NCBI GenBank assembly: GCA_045640165.1 | Contig: JAZUEK010000037.1 | Location: forward strand, 833-64,832 | DNA length: 64,000 nt | Direction of reading: 5' to 3' | Origin: Acutalibacteraceae bacterium | Lineage (GTDB): Bacteria; Bacillota; Clostridia; Oscillospirales; Acutalibacteraceae | Shown: positions 1,752 through 43,776 of the stretch, piece by piece | How the letters are laid out: every line of letters begins with the position of its first letter | Position numbering within the stretch: position 1 is the first letter of the stretch | Notes under the pieces: generated by a model | Seen by the model: the letters and a program-made list of their open reading frames with translations, nothing else | Told to the model about the DNA's origin: nothing | The model's database searches: none | Translations under genes and position numbers: made by a program

Positions 1752-2812
1752 TTCGCCACCCCCAAAATCGTTTTGAGCGCCGAAACCAGCGTCTCCATCT
1801 CTTCGCGCGAGCCAACCGTAATGCGGTTATAGTCGCGCAAAAGTTCAGTTTCAAAGTGACGAACAAGCACACCTTGCTCGCGCAGGGCGTTGTAGAGGTC
1901 AAGACCGCCCATTTGCGGATGTTTTGCAAAGAGGAAGTTCGCTTTCGAATCGGTCATCACAAAGCCGAGCGCTTTGAGTTCCGCTTCCGCCCACGCGCGG
2001 TTTTCCATAATCGCGCGGCAGTTCTTTTCAAAATACGCGACGTCGCAAAACGCGCCGATACCGGCCGCCGCCGTCATACGGTTGACGTTGTAGGGGTTGG
2101 TCGAATATTTAAGCGTGTTTAAGTCGGCGATAAGCGCCTTGTTGCCAATCGCCACGCCGAGCCGGCCGCCGGCAAGCGAGCGCGATTTCGAAAGTGTTTG
2201 GCAAACAAGCAGATTGTCGTATTTTTTCGTAAGGCAAACCGCGCTTTCCGCGCCGAAATCCACATACGCCTCGTCCACCACCACGACGTTGTCGGGGTTT
2301 GACTTAACGATTTGCTCAATTTCCGAAAGCGAAAGCGCAATACCCGTCGGCGCGTTGGGGTTAGCGAGAAAAATCGTCTTCCCTGCGCCGCAGTAATCGG
2401 CGATATTCAAAGTAAAATCGGCATTCAGCGGTTTCGTCTCGTACGGCACGCGGTTAAAGTCCGCCGCCACGGGATAAAAGCTGTAGGTGATGTTCGGGAA
2501 CAGCGCCGGCGTGTTATCATCGCAAAACGCGTTAAACGCAAAGCCGATGGCATCGTCCGAGCCGTTGACAAACAAGAGTTCGTCCGTCGCAACGCCATAA
2601 AATTCCGCGGCCGCCGCAACGAGATCGCGACAAGTCGGGTCGGAATAGAGCTGCAAATCCCCTGCCGCTTGGCGCGCAAGCCGCTGAGCAATCGGCGACG
2701 GCGGAAACGGCGATTCGTTCGTGTTAAGTTTTACGTATTTCCGCTCGCGCGGCTGTTCGCCGGGCGTATACGGCGTGAGCGCGGCAAATTTGCCGCTCAT
2801 AAATCGGCTCAT
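1748..2812 (-). CDS. hisC: Histidinol-phosphate aminotransferase HisC
   Basis: 354 aa class-II aminotransferase (LANPNAPTG, SKS..LAGGRLG). Position lies between hisD and hisB. Confidence 0.9.
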   Translation of the reverse strand: MSRFMSGKFAALTPYTPGEQPRERKYVKLNTNESPFPPSPIAQRLARQAAGDLQLYSDPTCRDLVAAAAEFYGVATDELLFVNGSDDAIGFAFNAFCDDNTPALFPNITYSFYPVAADFNRVPYETKPLNADFTLNIADYCGAGKTIFLANPNAPTGIALSLSEIEQIVKSNPDNVVVVDEAYVDFGAESAVCLTKKYDNLLVCQTLSKSRSLAGGRLGVAIGNKALIADLNTLKYSTNPYNVNRMTAAAGIGAFCDVAYFEKNCRAIMENRAWAEAELKALGFVMTDSKANFLFAKHPQMGGLDLYNALREQGVLVRHFETELLRDYNRITVGSREEMETLVSALKTILGVAK

Positions 2813-2813
2813 A

Positions 2814-4088
2814 TTAACCCTCCGTTCGAATAACGGCGCTTTTCGCGTGGGCGGTCAGCCCCTCTTTTTTTGCAAAGGTCGAAACGTCTTCCGCGACCTT
2901 GGCCAGCGCCTCTTTCGTATAATACGTGAACTGCATTTTCTTCACAAAATCGTCCACCGACAACGGGCTCGAGAACTTCGCCGTGCCGCTCGTCGGAAGC
3001 GTGTGGTTGGGGCCGGCAAAATAGTCGCCGAGCGCCTCGGGACAGTTGCGCCCAAGGAACACCGAGCCGGCGTGCCGCACCTTTTCGAGCACCGCAAACG
3101 GCTCGTCCACACAGAGTTCCAAGTGCTCCGGCGCGATTTCGTTCGCAATGTCAATGACCAAATCGAGCGTGTCCGCCACGATGATTTTGCCGTTTTGGTC
3201 AATGGACGCGCGCGCAATCTCCGCGCGTTCCAAAAGCGGAATTTGCACTTCCAGTTCCGCCTGCACCGCTTTGGCGAGGTCGGCGCTGTCGGTGACAAGC
3301 ACCGCCGACGCCAACTTGTCGTGCTCCGCTTGCGACAGCAGGTCCGCCGCCAAGTGGCGCGGATCGCTTTTACCGTCGGACACAATCATAATCTCGCTCG
3401 GGCCGGCAATCATATCAATCGACACGCGGCCAAACACCTGCTTTTTCGCCTCGGCAACGAACGCGTTGCCCGGGCCGACGATTTTGTCCACCTGTGGGAT
3501 ACTCTCCGTACCGTAAGCGAGGGCGGCAATCGCCTGCGCGCCGCCGACTTTATAGATTTTATCCACACCGGCAACCGAAGCCGCCGCCAAAATCGCCGGG
3601 TTGATTTTGCCCTCGGCCGTCGGCGGCGTGGTAATGACCACTTCTTTGACGCCGGCAATTTTCGCAGGAATCGCATCCATCAGCACGGTGGACGGATACG
3701 CCGCCGTACCGCCCGGAACGTAGAGACCGGCGCGATCAACGGGAATCACGCGCTGACCAATCACCGTGCCGTCGGGCGCATCGAGGCGAAAGCCCTCGCG
3801 CTTTTGGTTTTCGTGGAAACGGCGGATGTTCGCCGCCGCCTTTTTAAGAATTTCCAAAAATTCCGGCTCAACCGCCGCCACCGCCTCGTCAATTTCCTCT
3901 TTCGAGACAAGCAGGGTATCGAGTTTCGCCTTGTCAAACTTTTCGCCGTATTCAAAAAGCGCTTTATCGCCGTTTTTGCGGACGTTGTCGATAATCTCCG
4001 CGACGATGTCGGTAACGTTGAAACTCGGCACAACACGGGCGAAAATTTCGTCGTTCGACACCTCGCCGTAATTAAGAATTTTAATCAT
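2814..4088 (-). CDS. hisD: Histidinol dehydrogenase HisD
   Basis: 424 aa. Shows LYVPGGTAAYPSTVLM, GPGNAFV and SQAEHD motifs. Confidence 0.95.
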   Translation of the reverse strand: MIKILNYGEVSNDEIFARVVPSFNVTDIVAEIIDNVRKNGDKALFEYGEKFDKAKLDTLLVSKEEIDEAVAAVEPEFLEILKKAAANIRRFHENQKREGFRLDAPDGTVIGQRVIPVDRAGLYVPGGTAAYPSTVLMDAIPAKIAGVKEVVITTPPTAEGKINPAILAAASVAGVDKIYKVGGAQAIAALAYGTESIPQVDKIVGPGNAFVAEAKKQVFGRVSIDMIAGPSEIMIVSDGKSDPRHLAADLLSQAEHDKLASAVLVTDSADLAKAVQAELEVQIPLLERAEIARASIDQNGKIIVADTLDLVIDIANEIAPEHLELCVDEPFAVLEKVRHAGSVFLGRNCPEALGDYFAGPNHTLPTSGTAKFSSPLSVDDFVKKMQFTYYTKEALAKVAEDVSTFAKKEGLTAHAKSAVIRTEG

Positions 4089-4091
4089 CGT

Positions 4092-5639
4092 TTATTCCTC
4101 CAAATTCGCGGCGAGCCCGGCGGCGATTTTGTCAATCGCCTCGCTCTTAAACTTGAACGACGCCTTGTTGGAAATGAGCCGCGCGCTGATAGGTACCACG
4201 TCCTCGATAACCTCGAGGTTGTTCTCGCGCAAGGTGGCGCCGGTTTCGACGATATCCACAATCACGTCCGAAAGTCCCAAAATCGGCGCAATCTCAATCG
4301 AGCCGTTTAAGTGGATAAAGTCGATGTCGCGGCCTTTTTTGCGATAGAAATTCTTGGCGATATTCGAAAACTTCGTCGCCACGCGAAGGGTTTTGGTCGT
4401 ATCGTCCTCAAACCCTTTCGGCGCCGCTACCGCCATTTTGCACACACCCGTGTGCAAATCGACAAGTTCGTATACGTCCGGCTCGTATTCGAGCAAAATA
4501 TCTTTGCCGCATACACCCACGTCGGCGGCACCGCGCTCGACGTAAATCGCCACGTCGGACGGCTTCACCCAGAAATAGCGCACGCCTTTTTCGGGGTTTT
4601 CAAAAATGAGTTTGCGGTTGGGTTCCAAAATCGACGGGCACGGGAAACCGGCTTTGGCAAACGCTTTATACACACGCTCGCCGAGGCGGCCTTTCGGAAG
4701 CGCCACGTTGATAAATCCGTCGTCCGCGGCGGAGGCCTCGTCCACTCGTTCGAGCGCGTCGGTATACACCGCGAAGCCAATCGCGTTCGAGCGACGTTTC
4801 ATTTTTTGCATCAGGCGGTCATACTGTCCACCGGAAAGCACCGCTTCCGGCACACCGGGCAAAAAGCCCTTGAACACGACGCCGTTATAGTAGTTCACGT
4901 CGTTAAGAATCGAGAAGTCCACGCGCAACTCTGCCGCGTTCGCCGCCGACAGCACCGCGCGGAAATTCTCGTACGCTTCGCTTGCCGCAAACAAACCGTC
5001 AAGCGTCGGCAGCACCTCTTGCGGCGTGCCGTATACGCCGGCGAGCGTGAGCAACGCATCTACCGCATCCGTATCGCCACACTCGGCGCAAAGGGTAGCG
5101 ATTTCGTGGCGGTTTTTCTCGGAAATCGCTTGATACAGCGCGGCGGTTTTCTTACTGCCGAGTGCCAAGCGCTCCACGACACTCTCGAGCAAATCGAGGT
5201 CGGACACAGCGAGCACGCCGCCCTCGCCGAGCGAACGCAAACTCTCTGCCGCAAGCGCCAGCACCTCGCCCACTTCGGATTTGCCGACCGCGCCGAAACA
5301 CTCGACGCCCATCTGCAAAATCTCGCGGAACGGTGCGTTGCCGCCTGCCGCGCGGTAGACGTTTTCGTCGTAAAACACCTTACGGGTCACGTCCGGCTCG
5401 TCGGCGCTGTTCTTGATAATCGACAGCGTCACGTCGGGTTTGAGCGCCATCAGCTTGCCGTCAGAATCGGTAAACGTGATGACGTTGTCCGACACGAGAA
5501 AGTCCTTGTTTTTGGCGTAGAGGTCGTATTCCTCGAACTTGCTCATCCGATACGGCAAAAAGCCCTTTTGTGCGTATAATTCACGCAGGCGAAACACGAT
5601 TTTTTCGCCGCTTTTTAAGACAGAATCGTTAATATTCAT
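4092..5639 (-). CDS. hisG: Fused ATP phosphoribosyltransferase: regulatory HisZ-like N-half plus short-form catalytic HisG C-half
   Basis: 515 aa. The N-terminal ~305 aa are HisRS-like, as in HisZ (FRLRELYAQKGFLPYRMSKFEEYDLY). The C-terminal ~205 aa are short HisG (ALPKGRL..., VKPSDVAIYVERGAADVGVCGKD, VDIVETGATLRENNL). The junction is near nt 4715. Confidence 0.85.
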   Translation of the reverse strand: MNINDSVLKSGEKIVFRLRELYAQKGFLPYRMSKFEEYDLYAKNKDFLVSDNVITFTDSDGKLMALKPDVTLSIIKNSADEPDVTRKVFYDENVYRAAGGNAPFREILQMGVECFGAVGKSEVGEVLALAAESLRSLGEGGVLAVSDLDLLESVVERLALGSKKTAALYQAISEKNRHEIATLCAECGDTDAVDALLTLAGVYGTPQEVLPTLDGLFAASEAYENFRAVLSAANAAELRVDFSILNDVNYYNGVVFKGFLPGVPEAVLSGGQYDRLMQKMKRRSNAIGFAVYTDALERVDEASAADDGFINVALPKGRLGERVYKAFAKAGFPCPSILEPNRKLIFENPEKGVRYFWVKPSDVAIYVERGAADVGVCGKDILLEYEPDVYELVDLHTGVCKMAVAAPKGFEDDTTKTLRVATKFSNIAKNFYRKKGRDIDFIHLNGSIEIAPILGLSDVIVDIVETGATLRENNLEVIEDVVPISARLISNKASFKFKSEAIDKIAAGLAANLEE

Positions 5640-7870: not shown

Positions 7871-9097
7871 TTATTTGCCGTTTTTCTTGTTCACCGCCGC
7901 CTGCACTTTAATCGGCAGACCATAGAGGTTGATGAATCCGGCGGAATCTTTTTGGTCATAGTCGCTCTCACCGAAGGTCGCGAGCTCATCGCTGTACAGC
8001 GAATACGGGCTCCACACACCGGCTTTGATGATGTTGCCTTTGTAGAGTTTAAGCCGCACTTTACCGGTCACGTTCTCTTGCGTTTTGTCCACGAACGCAG
8101 ACAGCGCCTCGCGCAGCGGCGTAAACCACTGGCCGTTGTAGACGAGTTCCGCAAAGGTGATGGAAAGGCGTTGTTTCTCGTGCAGCGTCATCTTGTCGAG
8201 GCAGATGGTCTCGAGCGTTTCGTGCGCTTTATAGAGAATCGTGCCGCCGGGAGTTTCATACACGCCGCGGCATTTCATACCGACGAGGCGGTTTTCGACG
8301 ATGTCGATAAGGCCGATACCGTTTTTGCCGCCGAGTTCGTTGAGTTTGAGAATGATGTTTTTCGCGGACATTTTCTCGCCGTCCAACGCCACCGGCGTAC
8401 CCTGCTCGAAGTCGAGGGTCACGTAGGTCGGCTCATCCGGCGCTTTGATCGGGGACACGCCCATCTCGAGGAAGCCCTCTTTATCGTACAGCGGCTCGTT
8501 ACCGGTGTCTTCGAGGTCGAGACCCTCGTGGGACAAGTGCCACAGGTTTTTGTCTTTGGAATAGTTGGTCTCGCGGTTAATTTTCAGCGGAATATTGTGC
8601 GCCTCGGCATAGTCGATTTCCTCTTCACGCGACTGGATGTCCCACTCACGCCACGGGGCGATAATCGGCAGTTCCGGCGCAAACGCTTTGAGCGCGAGTT
8701 CAAAACGCACCTGGTCGTTGCCCTTGCCGGTGCAACCGTGGCAGATGGCGTCCGCGTTTTCTTTAATCGCAATCTCCGCAAGGCCTTTCGCGATGCAGGG
8801 ACGCGCGGTCGACGTGCCGAGCAGATAATCCTCATACACGGCGCCGGCTTTCATCGTCGGAATAATATACTCATCCACGTATTCCTCGGTCAAATCGAGG
8901 ACGTACAGTTTGGACGCGCCGGTTTTCAGCGCTTTCTCCTCAAGACCCTCGAGTTCGTCCGCCTGACCGACGTTACCGGAAACGGCGACAACCTCGCAGT
9001 TGTTGTAATTTTCTTTCAGCCACGGGATGATGATGGACGTATCGAGACCACCCGAATACGCCAATACCACTTTCTTGATTTTGGATTTGTCTAACAT
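7871..9097 (-). CDS. argG: Argininosuccinate synthase
   Basis: Shows the AYSGGLDTS motif and the [12 protein letters not shown] signature. The ATG at 9097 is preferred over the track's GTG at 9106 because the AGGAG RBS abuts the GTG and lies 8 nt from the ATG. Confidence 0.95.
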
Positions 9098-9129
9098 AAA
9101 AATCACTCCTCTTTTTTGTTACCTTCCGC

Positions 9130-9158
9130 ATTATACGCCCACTTTTGCCGCTTGTCAA
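9130..9158 (-). promoter_or_regulatory. Consensus sigma-A promoter of argGH
   Basis: Minus strand reads TTGACA, a 17-nt spacer, then TATAAT. This is a perfect match to consensus, about 30 nt upstream of the argG start. Confidence 0.6.
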
Positions 9159-9246
9159 CCCCTTTTTTGAAAAAATATGCAGAAAATATTTATAATTATG
9201 CTTAATTTTGCGATTTTTCGGGATAAATACTCTTTTTTCCTTTTTA

Positions 9247-9275
9247 TTGACACGAGCGGTGCGGCGTGATACAAT
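9247..9275 (+). promoter_or_regulatory. Sigma-A promoter of glyQS
   Basis: TTGACA at 9247-9252, a 17-nt spacer, then TGaTACAAT (extended -10) ending at 9275. The leader is only about 35 nt, so no T-box can fit. Confidence 0.6.
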
Positions 9276-9312
9276 AAAGGATGTATGAAAAAACATTCTC
9301 AGGAGGCTCTTT

Positions 9313-10587
9313 ATGAAAAACACAGACAAGACAATGGACAAGTTGGTCGCCCTTTGCAAAGGCCGCGGATTTGTCTATGCAGGAAGCGAAATCTACGGCG
9401 GACTTGCCAACACCTGGGACTACGGTCCTCTCGGTGTGGAACTCAAAAACAACATCAAACAGGCGTGGTGGAAGAAATTCGTGAAAGAATCCCCCTACAA
9501 CGTCGGTCTTGATGCCGCCATCTTGATGAACCCCCAAACGTGGGTGGCTTCCGGTCACCTCGGCGGCTTCTCCGATCCGCTGATGGACTGCCGCGAATGC
9601 AAAGAGCGTTTCCGCGCGGATAAAATTATCGAAGACTATTGCGCCGAAAACGGTGTGGAACTGGAAAAGCCTATCGACGCGTTCTCGCAGGAAGAAATGA
9701 AAGCCTTCATCGAAGAGAAAAACATCCCCTGCCCGAGCTGCGGCAAACATAACTTCACCGATATCCGTCAGTTCAACCTGATGTTCAAAACGTTCCAAGG
9801 CGTGACCGAGGACGCGAAAAACACCGTGTATCTGCGTCCGGAAACCGCGCAGGGCATCTTTGTCAACTTCGCGAACGTCCAGAGAACGTCGCGCAAAAAA
9901 GTGCCGTTCGGCATCGGTCAAATCGGTAAATCGTTCCGCAACGAAATCACGCCGGGTAACTTTATTTTCCGCGTGCGCGAGTTCGAGCAGATGGAACTCG
10001 AATTTTTCTGCAAACCGGGCACCGACCTCGAATGGTTCAGCTACTGGCGCGGCTTCTGCCGTGATTGGCTGTTGTCGCTCGGCATCAAAGAAGAAAATCT
10101 CCGTCTGCGCGACCACGATCCGGAAGAACTCTGCTTCTACTCCAAAGCGACCACCGACTTCGAATTCTTGTTCCCGTTCGGTTGGGGCGAGCTGTGGGGC
10201 GTGGCCGACCGCACCGATTACGACTTGACCCAACACCAAAACACCTCCGGCAAAGACCTCACCTACTTCGACCAAGAAACGAACGAGCACTATATCCCCT
10301 ACGTCATCGAGCCGGCGCTCGGTGTGGAACGCTCGTTCTTAGCTTTCCTTTGTGATGCGTATGACGAAGAGGTCGTGGACGCCGAAAAGAACGACACCCG
10401 TGTGGTGCTTCGCCTGCATCCGGCGCTCGCGCCGTTCAAAGCCGCGGTGTTGCCGCTTTCGAAGAAACTGTCGGAAGAAGCGCGTAAAGTGTTCGACACT
10501 CTCGCGCCCGACTTTATGGTGGACTTCGACGATGCCGGCTCGATCGGCAAACGCTATCGCCGTCAGGACGAAATCGGCACGCCGTAA
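9313..10587 (+). CDS. glyQS: Glycine--tRNA ligase (alpha2-type GlyQS), reading frame closed by an in-frame TAA 43 codons before the family-typical end
   Basis: 424 aa. Class-II aaRS motifs and the GlyQS N-terminus are present ([28 protein letters not shown]). It ends ...[14 protein letters not shown], where homologues continue with an aromatic residue followed by C(V/I)T.DFD. Confidence 0.9.
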
Positions 10588-10716
10588 TGCGTGGCGTTCG
10601 ACTTCGACAGCCTCGAAGACAACTGCGTGACCGTGCGCGAGCGCGACAGCATGGAGCAGGTGCGCTTGCCGATTGCCGAACTGTCTGCGTTCCTCGCCGA
10701 AAAAATCCGCTACTAA
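10588..10716 (+). other. In-frame continuation of glyQS after the internal TAA (end of the anticodon-binding domain)
   Basis: Same frame, own translation: [45 protein letters not shown]. This is the conserved GlyQS C-terminus. Confidence 0.8.
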
Positions 10717-17754: not shown

Positions 17755-18915
17755 TTAGTCCTCGACGACAATGTCGATTTTGGCTTTTGCCTGCGCCGCG
17801 GTCACACGGGGTGCATCCGCAAGCGGAATTTCCATCGGCATCGGTGCGGGAGCAGGCGTTGCCGTAAACGGATCCTCCTCCTCTTTGGATTTCATCATCC
17901 ACGCACGCACAGCCGTCTCAATTTCCTCGGCAACCGCCGGGTTGTTTTTGAGATATTCTTTCGCGTTGTCGCGGCCTTGGCCGATGCGCTCCTCTTTATA
18001 AGAGAACCACGCACCGGATTTTTGAATGATATCCGCTTCCACCGCGAGATCCAGCACCTCGCTCAAATGCGAAATGCCCTCACCGTACATGATGTCAAAC
18101 TCCGCCTCTTTGAAGGGCGGCGCCACCTTGTTTTTGACCACACGCACACGGGTGTGCGAACCAATCGGCGAGCCGTTGGCCTTAAGAGTCTCGGTGCGGC
18201 GCACGTCAAGGCGCACCGACGCGTAATATTTCAGCGCGTTGCCGCCGGCAGTGACTTCGGGGTTGCCGTACACCACGCCCACTTTCATACGCAGTTGGTT
18301 GATAAAAATCGCCAAGCAGTTGGACTTAGACACCACGCCTGCCAGTTTGCGCATTGCCTGCGACATCAGGCGCGCTTGCAAACCGACGTGAGCGTCGCCC
18401 ATCTCGCCCTCGATTTCCGCACGAGGCACCAGCGCCGCCACCGAGTCGATAACCAAAATATCCACCGCGCCGGAGCGAATCAGCGCCTCGGCGATTTCGA
18501 GCGCCTGCTCACCGGTGTCCGGCTGAGAAACAAGCAACTCGTCCACATTGACGCCGAGCGCTTTCGCATACACGGGGTCAAGCGCGTGCTCCACGTCCAC
18601 GTAAGCGGCTTCGCCGCCCATTTTCTGCGCTTCTGCCACCGCGTGAAGCGCCAACGTCGTTTTACCCGACGCCTCCGGCCCGTAGATTTCAACAATACGG
18701 CCGCGCGGCAAACCGCCGATTCCGAGCGCGCGGTCCAACGTAACCGAGCCGGTGGGAATCGCATCTACTTGCATATTCATATTCTGGCCAAGGCGCATCA
18801 CCGCGCCCTTGCCGAAACTTTTTTCAATTTGAGCCAACGCCATTTCAAGCGCTTTCTGTTTATTTTCATTCTTTTCGATTCCGGCGGATTTCTCCGCGCC
18901 TTTTTTGGTAGCCAT
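17755..18915 (-). CDS. recA: Recombinase RecA
   Basis: Shows the Walker A motif GPEASGKTT and other canonical RecA sequence. The ATG at 18915 is preferred because GAGG lies 7 nt upstream. The track start at 18921 is only 1 nt from that RBS. Confidence 0.97.
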
Positions 18916-22148: not shown

Positions 22149-22154
22149 GCAAGA

Positions 22155-22416
22155 AACCGATGAACAAGAGGAAGTAAGCCCCTGCACGGATTGTAGAGAG
22201 CCGCCGACGGTGGAAGCGCGGTATCACGACAGGTCGCCGAATGGTCTTGGGAGGGCTGCCGAAACGACGTTTCGTCCGATGGCAGACGGGAACTTCGCCC
22301 GTTATCCCTGAAGCGTCTGTGTCCGCAGACGGCGAGAGTGGGCTGAATTTCAGCCAATGCTGGGTGGTACCGCAGGAAAGATTCCTGTCCCTCGATTTTC
22401 GAGGGACAGTTTTTTT
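22155..22416 (+). promoter_or_regulatory. T-box riboswitch leader (probable Trp specifier UGG)
   Basis: Stem I carries AGAGAG and GGTGGAA motifs at about 22196-22217. The candidate specifier GAA-UGG is at 22242-22244. The T-box core AATGCTGGGTGGTACCGCAGG is at 22356-22376. The terminator CTGTCCCTCGattttCGAGGGACAG followed by T7 is at 22385-22416. Confidence 0.8.
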
Positions 22417-42567: not shown

Positions 42568-42741
42568 TTACGCATCCACGCCGTCGTACATGGCGAACAT
42601 CGGCAGGTACACGGACAACAGAACGAAGCAGACGAACACGGCGAGGAACACGATCATAATCGGTTCGATAAGCGCGGTCGCTTTGGTGGTCGCGAGGTCC
42701 ACCTCGTTATCGTAATATTCAGCGGTAATGCCGAGGGTGGT
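42568..42741 (-). other. In-frame continuation of pilC after the internal TAA (last conserved segment and final TM helix)
   Basis: Own translation: TTLGITAEYYDNEVDLATTKATALIEPIMIVFLAVFVCFVLLSVYLPMFAMYDGVDA-TAA. This is the canonical GspF/PilC C-terminus. Confidence 0.8.
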
Positions 42742-43776
42742 TTACAGAGAACCGGTTTCCTCAGCGACGGCGGTCATTTCTTTAAGCAAATCGGGGAAAT
42801 ACTCGATATCGCGCATACAGTCACCGAGACGGCGACCGGCTTCGATACCGGCGTTCATCTCCAGTACCGCGCGGCTGACCACGTAGTTACCGATAACCTT
42901 ACCGGTAACGTTGATAGCCTCCACAACGGTCAGACCGGCAGAGAACATGTTAACGAAGGTATTCGCAAACTGGCTGGCGCAACTCATACTGTTCACCTTG
43001 CCGAGCACCGGCATATTCAGCATGAAGATGGCAATTTTCTCGCGTCCCACGTCGGTACGGGCAAAAATACGGTAAATCAAAATGATTGCCGCAATAATAC
43101 CGGCCAACAGTATAAAGTGTTTGGTCATAAACTCAGACATCGCGATAAGGAGTTTCGTCGGAAGCGGCAACTCACCGCCCTGGCTTTCGAACGTTTCCTT
43201 AAACATAGGAACCGCGACCACCATGATGATGACGATAACGACGACGGAAACCACGCCGACGAATGCCGGGTAGGTCAAAGCGGATTTGACCTTACCTTTA
43301 GTCTTGGCGGATTTGTCGTAGAAGACTTCCATACGCTTAAAGGACTGCTCCAAGTTACCGGATTTTTCACCGGCGCGCACCGTTTCAATAAAGGTAACGG
43401 GGAGCGTCGCGCCGCGGTCTTGGAAACTGTCGGACAACGAGTGACCGGCGGCCACGTCGTGGGCAACCTCGGTCAACAAGAGTTTCAAGTCTTTGTTCTC
43501 GGTTTGGTTGGCAACCAGTTCCACGGTACGCACCAGCGGCAAACCGGAAGACAAGATGATACCGAACTGGCTGCACACAAGGGACAGCTCTTTTTCGGAG
43601 ATTTTTTTCGGGCCAAGGAACGAACCACCCGTTTTTTTCTTAGCCTCGGAAATTTTGGTGACAACGCCACCCTGTTCACGAATTTTGGCGATTGCGTCCA
43701 AGCGATCGTACGCTTCGATAACGCCGGTCATTTTACCGCCGCTGGACGACTGGGCCTCATACTTGAATGTTGTCAA
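42742..43776 (-). CDS. pilC: Type IV pilus platform protein PilC (GspF family), closed by an in-frame TAA 57 codons before the family-typical end
   Basis: 344 aa. GspF repeats are present and the protein ends ...LKEMTAVAEETGSL-TAA. Together with 42568-42741 the frame is 403 codons, counting the internal and terminal stops, which is the usual PilC size. Confidence 0.85.
   Translation of the reverse strand: MTTFKYEAQSSSGGKMTGVIEAYDRLDAIAKIREQGGVVTKISEAKKKTGGSFLGPKKISEKELSLVCSQFGIILSSGLPLVRTVELVANQTENKDLKLLLTEVAHDVAAGHSLSDSFQDRGATLPVTFIETVRAGEKSGNLEQSFKRMEVFYDKSAKTKGKVKSALTYPAFVGVVSVVVIVIIMVVAVPMFKETFESQGGELPLPTKLLIAMSEFMTKHFILLAGIIAAIILIYRIFARTDVGREKIAIFMLNMPVLGKVNSMSCASQFANTFVNMFSAGLTVVEAINVTGKVIGNYVVSRAVLEMNAGIEAGRRLGDCMRDIEYFPDLLKEMTAVAEETGSL

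Follow-up and report, generated by a model that had tools for sequence, protein, structure and literature searches.

The window, a stretch of 64,000 nucleotides on contig C37 of a draft Acutalibacteraceae assembly (84 contigs, 1.52 Mb, 86% estimated completeness) that looks like a draft metagenome bin, carries a gene for an alpha2-type glycine--tRNA ligase (GlyRS), glyQS, whose reading frame is interrupted by an in-frame TAA. An earlier note had placed this stop 43 codons before the natural end of the gene, and both positions were confirmed. The features of the locus are as follows.

9247 to 9275, plus strand: sigma-70-like promoter with a TG before the -10 hexamer (11 of 12 matches)
9313 to 10716, plus strand: glyQS, alpha2-type glycine--tRNA ligase, interrupted frame (Pfam and homologues)
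9313 to 10584, plus strand: glyQS codons 1-424, catalytic core (class II) plus the N-terminal half of the anticodon-binding domain (PF00587; PF03129 positions 1-54)
10585 to 10587, plus strand: in-frame TAA at glyQS codon 425, with a private C>A at 10587, equivalent to C37:11419
10588 to 10713, plus strand: 42 in-frame conserved codons cut off by the TAA (HGTP_anticodon positions 56-93)
10714 to 10716, plus strand: natural glyQS TAA, at the C-terminus common to homologues

The encoded protein has the domain order of class II alpha2-type GlyRS, with a class II core (tRNA-synt_2b, PF00587, E 7e-13) followed by a C-terminal HGTP anticodon-binding domain, whereas the single uninterrupted frame of about 467 codons expected of this enzyme is broken by the TAA at codon 425. 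The HGTP_anticodon profile (PF03129) was matched over positions 1-54 by the residues that precede the stop (E 2.6e-6) and over positions 56-93 by those that follow it (E 3.5e-7), and reading through the TAA produced a single continuous match over positions 1-93 (E 7.8e-21). The presence of one Pfam domain on both sides of the stop implies an interrupted gene rather than two chance open reading frames. The nearest solved structures are bacterial GlyRS (8u2q, E 1.4e-155, residues 8-465), and the solved bacterial GlyRS entries have Tyr at the position aligned to codon 425. The truncated GlyRS 1-424 is short of about 40 positions of the 94-position profile for the anticodon-binding domain, consistent with the earlier claim that the end of this domain would be lost; judging from the Pfam positions and the general fold, the missing part presumably comprises the final three beta-strands of the domain as well as its C-terminal helix. 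The base 3' of the internal stop is T (context UAA-U). Within the cut-off part, a GTG lies in frame at 10591, two codons past the TAA, with no Shine-Dalgarno sequence upstream of it, and a private A>G is present at 10594 (Thr428Ala).

Upstream of glyQS, a -35 hexamer TTGACA (9247-9252) is separated by a 17-nt spacer from the -10 hexamer TACAAT (9270-9275), and GGAGG directly precedes the ATG at 9313. The position of this promoter and of the GGAGG implies a leader of about 30-35 nt, in agreement with the promoter and the leader of about 35 nt described previously. The reported lack of a glycine T-box (RF00230) was also borne out: no Rfam match was obtained near glyQS at the gathering threshold, and a search of 8950-9450 at E<=10 yielded only noise. 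None of 12 genus-, family- or order-level relatives has a T-box within 1.5 kb of glyQS, so the short leader behind a near-consensus promoter is the norm of the lineage, and the absence of a T-box is real but unremarkable. About ten T-boxes are present elsewhere in the genome, six of them above the gathering score; another of the ten or so, at window positions 22151-22395 on the plus strand, falls just short of that score, with 85.9 bits where 93 are required. The glyQS T-box of Bacillus subtilis shares with the present locus the gene name and the amino acid, but that leader controls an alpha2-beta2 enzyme (glyQ plus glyS) to which the alpha2-type enzyme encoded here, lacking a T-box, is unrelated.

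The internal stop is confined to this assembly. A GlyRS match was found in 28 of the 30 related genomes searched, and none of the 28 contains an internal stop. The context of codon 425 is CCG-TAA-TGC here versus CCG-TAC/TAT-TGC in five congeners, and a conspecific ENA metagenome contig (L013; 97.35% nucleotide identity, 10.4 kb) has TAC. The TAC or TAT codons of the conspecific contig and the congeners indicate that the lesion is a single C>A at 10587 (TAC>TAA, Tyr425), one of the two single changes proposed in the earlier note. The aromatic residue expected at this position was likewise found in the more distant homologues that were fetched, which have Tyr or Phe, with the exception of Val in one order-level relative. 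Relative to the conspecific contig, glyQS shows 20 synonymous-only codon differences and two missense differences in addition to the stop. The exact 424-amino-acid product is recorded from one contig only and belongs to a 90%-identity cluster of 3121 members, in which the members listed are 467-477 amino acids long. Exact-protein look-up of this product and of the 41-amino-acid tail returned nothing beyond the source genome, and the exact DNA pattern around the stop, with its third base left free, had no match in genome or metagenome contigs. The glyQS TAA is thus a private mutation or a consensus error, not a new genetic code.

The same conspecific contig bears on another gene of the window, a fused HisZ-like/HisG gene of 515 codons (about 4092-5639, minus strand) with tRNA-synt_His and HisG domains. 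It is present as one gene on L013 as well (positions 1970-3517), which argues that the fusion is not an assembly quirk.

GlyRS is normally essential, and glyQS had been described as an essential, single-copy gene. No second alpha2 GlyRS was detectable in the 86%-complete assembly, where the sole other query match was a weak anticodon-domain match in another gene. The glyQ family (PF02091) is absent from the assembly as well, and a second GlyRS could lie in the 14% of the genome that is missing.

The other in-frame TAA that had been reported for the window, in pilC, was confirmed. The genome-wide scan for interrupted conserved genes that had been called for was carried out with coding segments called by a six-frame dicodon model, which replaced a codon-usage score against shifted frames after the latter gave 601 false candidates, namely antisense shadow open reading frames. 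Strong same-frame coding signal across a single stop was seen at 129 junctions, each of which was tested against Pfam with its flanking peptides. A single Pfam domain spans only three of them: glyQS (TAC>TAA), pilC (GAA>TAA) and typA/bipA (TAC>TAG). The scan therefore added one case to the two in the window, with a TAG instead of a TAA. The two additional genes are located as follows.

Window 42571 to 43731, minus strand: pilC of the T2SSF family, interrupted by a private TAA at 42742-42744, with the variant site at 42744, equivalent to C37:43576 (Pfam and congeners)
Contig C39, 9355 to 11175, minus strand, outside the window: typA/bipA, with a private TAG at 9673-9675 (codon 501 of 607)

All three stops are absent from congeners. 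The pilC position is GAA (Glu) in five congeners and GAG in a sixth, and codon 501 of typA is TAC (Tyr) in six congeners. All three are positioned at 82-91% of gene length, a placement with p ~0.004 under a uniform distribution over the detectable range. No in-frame TGA interrupting a Pfam domain was found in the genome-wide scan, and inspection by eye of the listed members of a relaxed set of 151 weaker junctions revealed nothing that looked like an interrupted conserved protein. The genome is otherwise clean of domain-interrupting stops. Further private replacements occur in both genes: a Gly>Ala in pilC, 7 codons upstream of its TAA, and in typA a Thr>Pro two codons upstream of the TAG and a Leu>Arg 70 codons downstream of it.

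A different kind of recurrence was observed in the assembly, a stretch of about 150-170 nt found on many contigs with 70-75% identity (C68:14897-15067, 18173-18334 and dozens more, including copies in congeners). Since many of the encoded proteins contain Dockerin_1 domains (for example DVNMKDVLMLRKYLAG), it is probably a dockerin-coding module of a cellulosome-like system.

The approximately 1230 coding segments end in TAA (814, about 66%), TGA (384) or TAG (32), and glyQS itself ends naturally in TAA at the homologous C-terminus. No tRNA with a UUA anticodon was detected among the 45 tRNAs predicted by ARAGORN, a set that includes a single tRNA-Tyr (GUA) but has gaps, tRNA-Trp for one being missing from the assembly. 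Both class I release factors are encoded. RF1 carries one benign private change and is unchanged at the PxT motif (PET, the norm of the lineage) and at GGQ, while RF2 is altered in its codon-recognition motif:

Contig C69, 31696 to 32826, minus strand, outside the window: prfB (RF2), with PPF in place of SPF (variant base C69:32214)

The motif is SPF in all 21 relatives examined, encoded with TCN or AGC codons, versus PPF with CCG here, and it is also SPF in all 133 other RF2 homologues fetched from databases. The closest database RF2 (P0267), considered as a possible conspecific sequence, proved to be a congener with about 90% nucleotide identity. Thus, of the suppressor tRNAs and release-factor changes that had been suggested as things to look for, no suppressor tRNA was found and RF1 is intact, and a private change is present in RF2.

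The window of 64 kb contains two in-frame TAA codons, and conserved sequence continues in frame after each of them. This could suggest a recoding of TAA, or its programmed readthrough, in this Acutalibacteraceae bacterium, and the earlier note had regarded the pair as unlikely for random decay. That argument was not supported, given that TAA is the main terminator, that all of the stops are private and that no suppressor tRNA was found, and recoding or readthrough is accordingly so improbable that it hardly competes. Reassignment should leave TAA rare or absent at conserved gene ends, where it is instead the commonest terminator, and many shared in-frame cases would be expected; the genome provided two TAA and one TAG, all missing in relatives. 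RF1 is intact, RF2 is present with its altered motif, no cognate tRNA was found, and programmed readthrough was rejected because the UAA-U context is not leaky and the stop occurs in no relative. Known stop-codon reassignments of bacteria and phages (UGA read as Trp or Gly, UAG as Gln) resemble the present case in having in-frame stops at conserved sense positions, but there the reassigned codon seldom or never terminates genes, occurs in frame in many genes and is accompanied by a cognate tRNA and release-factor loss, none of which holds here. Somewhat more room, though still little, is left for a strain with compromised termination, in which the RF2 Ser>Pro change weakens termination and tRNA-Tyr misreads the glyQS UAA, restoring wild-type GlyRS. 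Such a strain would be the wild counterpart of laboratory prfB suppressors and would tolerate the glyQS ochre together with the two other nonsense alleles. The motif change is private against a uniform background of relatives and homologues, and the chance of a change at any of about 11 key release-factor codons was estimated by us at ~1e-3, assuming some 75-100 random changes genome-wide; it is this low value that keeps the scenario under consideration at all. Moreover, Ser205 of the SPF motif contacts the second stop-codon base (PMC5776981). Only 32 coding segments end in TAG, from which it follows that RF2 probably carries most UAA termination, and in two of the three genes the stop has taken the place of Tyr, which is what near-cognate misreading would put back. 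Nevertheless, the intact RF1 reads both UAA and UAG, so tolerance of UAA is explained only weakly by the RF2 change, and tolerance of UAG cannot be explained by it, as the typA UAG is not read by RF2. The codon most affected by an RF2 defect would be TGA, yet no in-frame TGA was found, and with TGA ending 384 coding segments a crippled RF2 would be very costly. Ito et al. 2000 reportedly observed that Pro at the SPF Ser position restricts reading to A; UGA would then stay unread, in spite of its use at those gene ends. The prfB nonsense-suppressor mutants of Escherichia coli and Salmonella (e.g. supK), which mainly suppress UGA, likewise combine an RF2 missense change with nonsense codons in conserved genes, but the apparent change here sits in the SPF codon-recognition motif itself, the stops are UAA, UAA and UAG, and RF1 is intact.

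The choice is therefore mainly between a real allele and a wrong base, and it was approached through the other private changes of the genome. When these were polarized with three congeners, 43 synonymous and 10 nonsynonymous changes were assigned to this genome and 54 and 8, respectively, to the conspecific contig. Across the secY-rplQ block, with 1284 amino-acid columns invariant in 11 genus genomes, one private change was counted here versus 4-16 in the five closest congeners. A flood of errors was rejected on this basis, as these small samples show no excess of private or nonsynonymous changes. Own-branch synonymous/nonsynonymous counts were 14/2 for glyQS, 17/3 for typA, 16/9 for pilC and 7/2 for prfB, and such normal counts in the affected genes imply that the lesions are recent. 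Clustering of private changes beside the stops was not distinctive, with eight pairs within 10 nt here and seven on the conspecific contig. Oxidative damage and a mutY mutator were also rejected as causes, since the private changes show no enrichment of G:C>T:A (5 of 56 here versus 3 of 70). A mutY match above the curated cut-off was obtained in 10 of the 12 genus genomes searched and not in the source assembly. In the relatives, mutY occupies part of an interval of about 4.5 kb whose flanks are homologous to one end of contig C69 (56383) and one end of contig C49 (about 8308-8481); the interval is an assembly gap here, and the lack of mutY from the assembly consequently says nothing about its loss.

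From these comparisons of sequence, the glyQS TAA would most likely be a real, recently arisen allele carried by the sampled strain, namely a private nonsense change that is not programmed, a reading to which we assign a probability of roughly 0.5. A consensus or assembly error, in which a low-coverage or mixed-strain bin yielded a false A at 10587 and the reads of the organism have TAC, is a serious but less probable alternative, under which the oddities of pilC, typA and RF2 would likewise have arisen as errors. An error would fit the draft character of the bin, the position of the lesion in the sole copy of an essential gene, the uniqueness of the truncated product to one record and the occurrence, at each stop, of another private nonsynonymous change 7-20 nt away, although the conspecific contig has close private pairs just as often. 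The three nonsense changes are all transversions at G:C pairs, for which about 27% would be expected under the inter-strain spectrum and about 82% under a uniform, error-like spectrum. The placement of the stops pulls the opposite way: errors would fall anywhere in a gene rather than in its last 18%, whereas a 3'-end bias is what selection on real nonsense alleles leaves, and recoding is not required to account for it. Furthermore, random coding changes create a stop in 2-3% of cases, so three nonsense errors imply about 100 random changes genome-wide, a number that the samples, which show no private or nonsynonymous excess, neither reveal nor exclude; and the affected sites lie in unique sequence far from contig ends. 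Against a real allele stands the loss of half of the anticodon-binding domain, which should cripple the enzyme. UAA-U is the strongest termination context in E. coli, and leaky readthrough of glyQS should thus be small. Artificially split aminoacyl-tRNA synthetases can reassemble, and the in-frame GTG at 10591 could in principle restart translation to give a 41-residue C-terminal piece that reassembles with GlyRS 1-424. Such a functionally split gene is very improbable, as no Shine-Dalgarno sequence precedes the GTG, congeners whose glyQS is intact have this GTG too, the arrangement occurs in no relative and the cut would fall inside a beta-sheet.

If the allele is real, a C>A transversion would have converted the Tyr425 codon TAC to TAA, which would be read as a true stop and yield GlyRS 1-424. 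The glyQS change would then be one of three 3'-proximal nonsense alleles not yet purged by purifying selection. GlyRS might be supplied by residual activity of the truncated enzyme or by a tRNA-Tyr that occasionally misreads the UAA and so reinstates the original Tyr, or the allele may be unfixed in the population behind the bin. Strain-private nonsense alleles, or young pseudogenes, and consensus errors of draft metagenome-assembled genomes are already known phenomena. The present case resembles them in involving a single base change absent from conspecific and congeneric sequences, a normal synonymous/nonsynonymous ratio elsewhere and a handful of 3'-biased cases per genome. It differs in affecting the only detectable gene of an essential aminoacyl-tRNA synthetase, where such alleles normally do not persist.

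The genome serves as the representative of its species and presents a truncated sole GlyRS, PilC and TypA, none of which is a species trait. The finding is mainly a caution for annotation: glyQS is best annotated with a warning that it may be a sequencing error or a strain-level pseudogene, and its TAA lends itself neither to an argument for stop-codon recoding nor to one for a dispensable anticodon-binding domain. Only the RF2 motif change deserves read-level attention. If both the TAA and the SPF>PPF change were true, this would be a natural isolate in which a modified stop-recognition motif coexists with nonsense codons in conserved genes, and it would allow direct tests of how far termination fidelity can drop in a free-living gut anaerobe and of whether near-cognate misreading shields nonsense alleles at Tyr codons.
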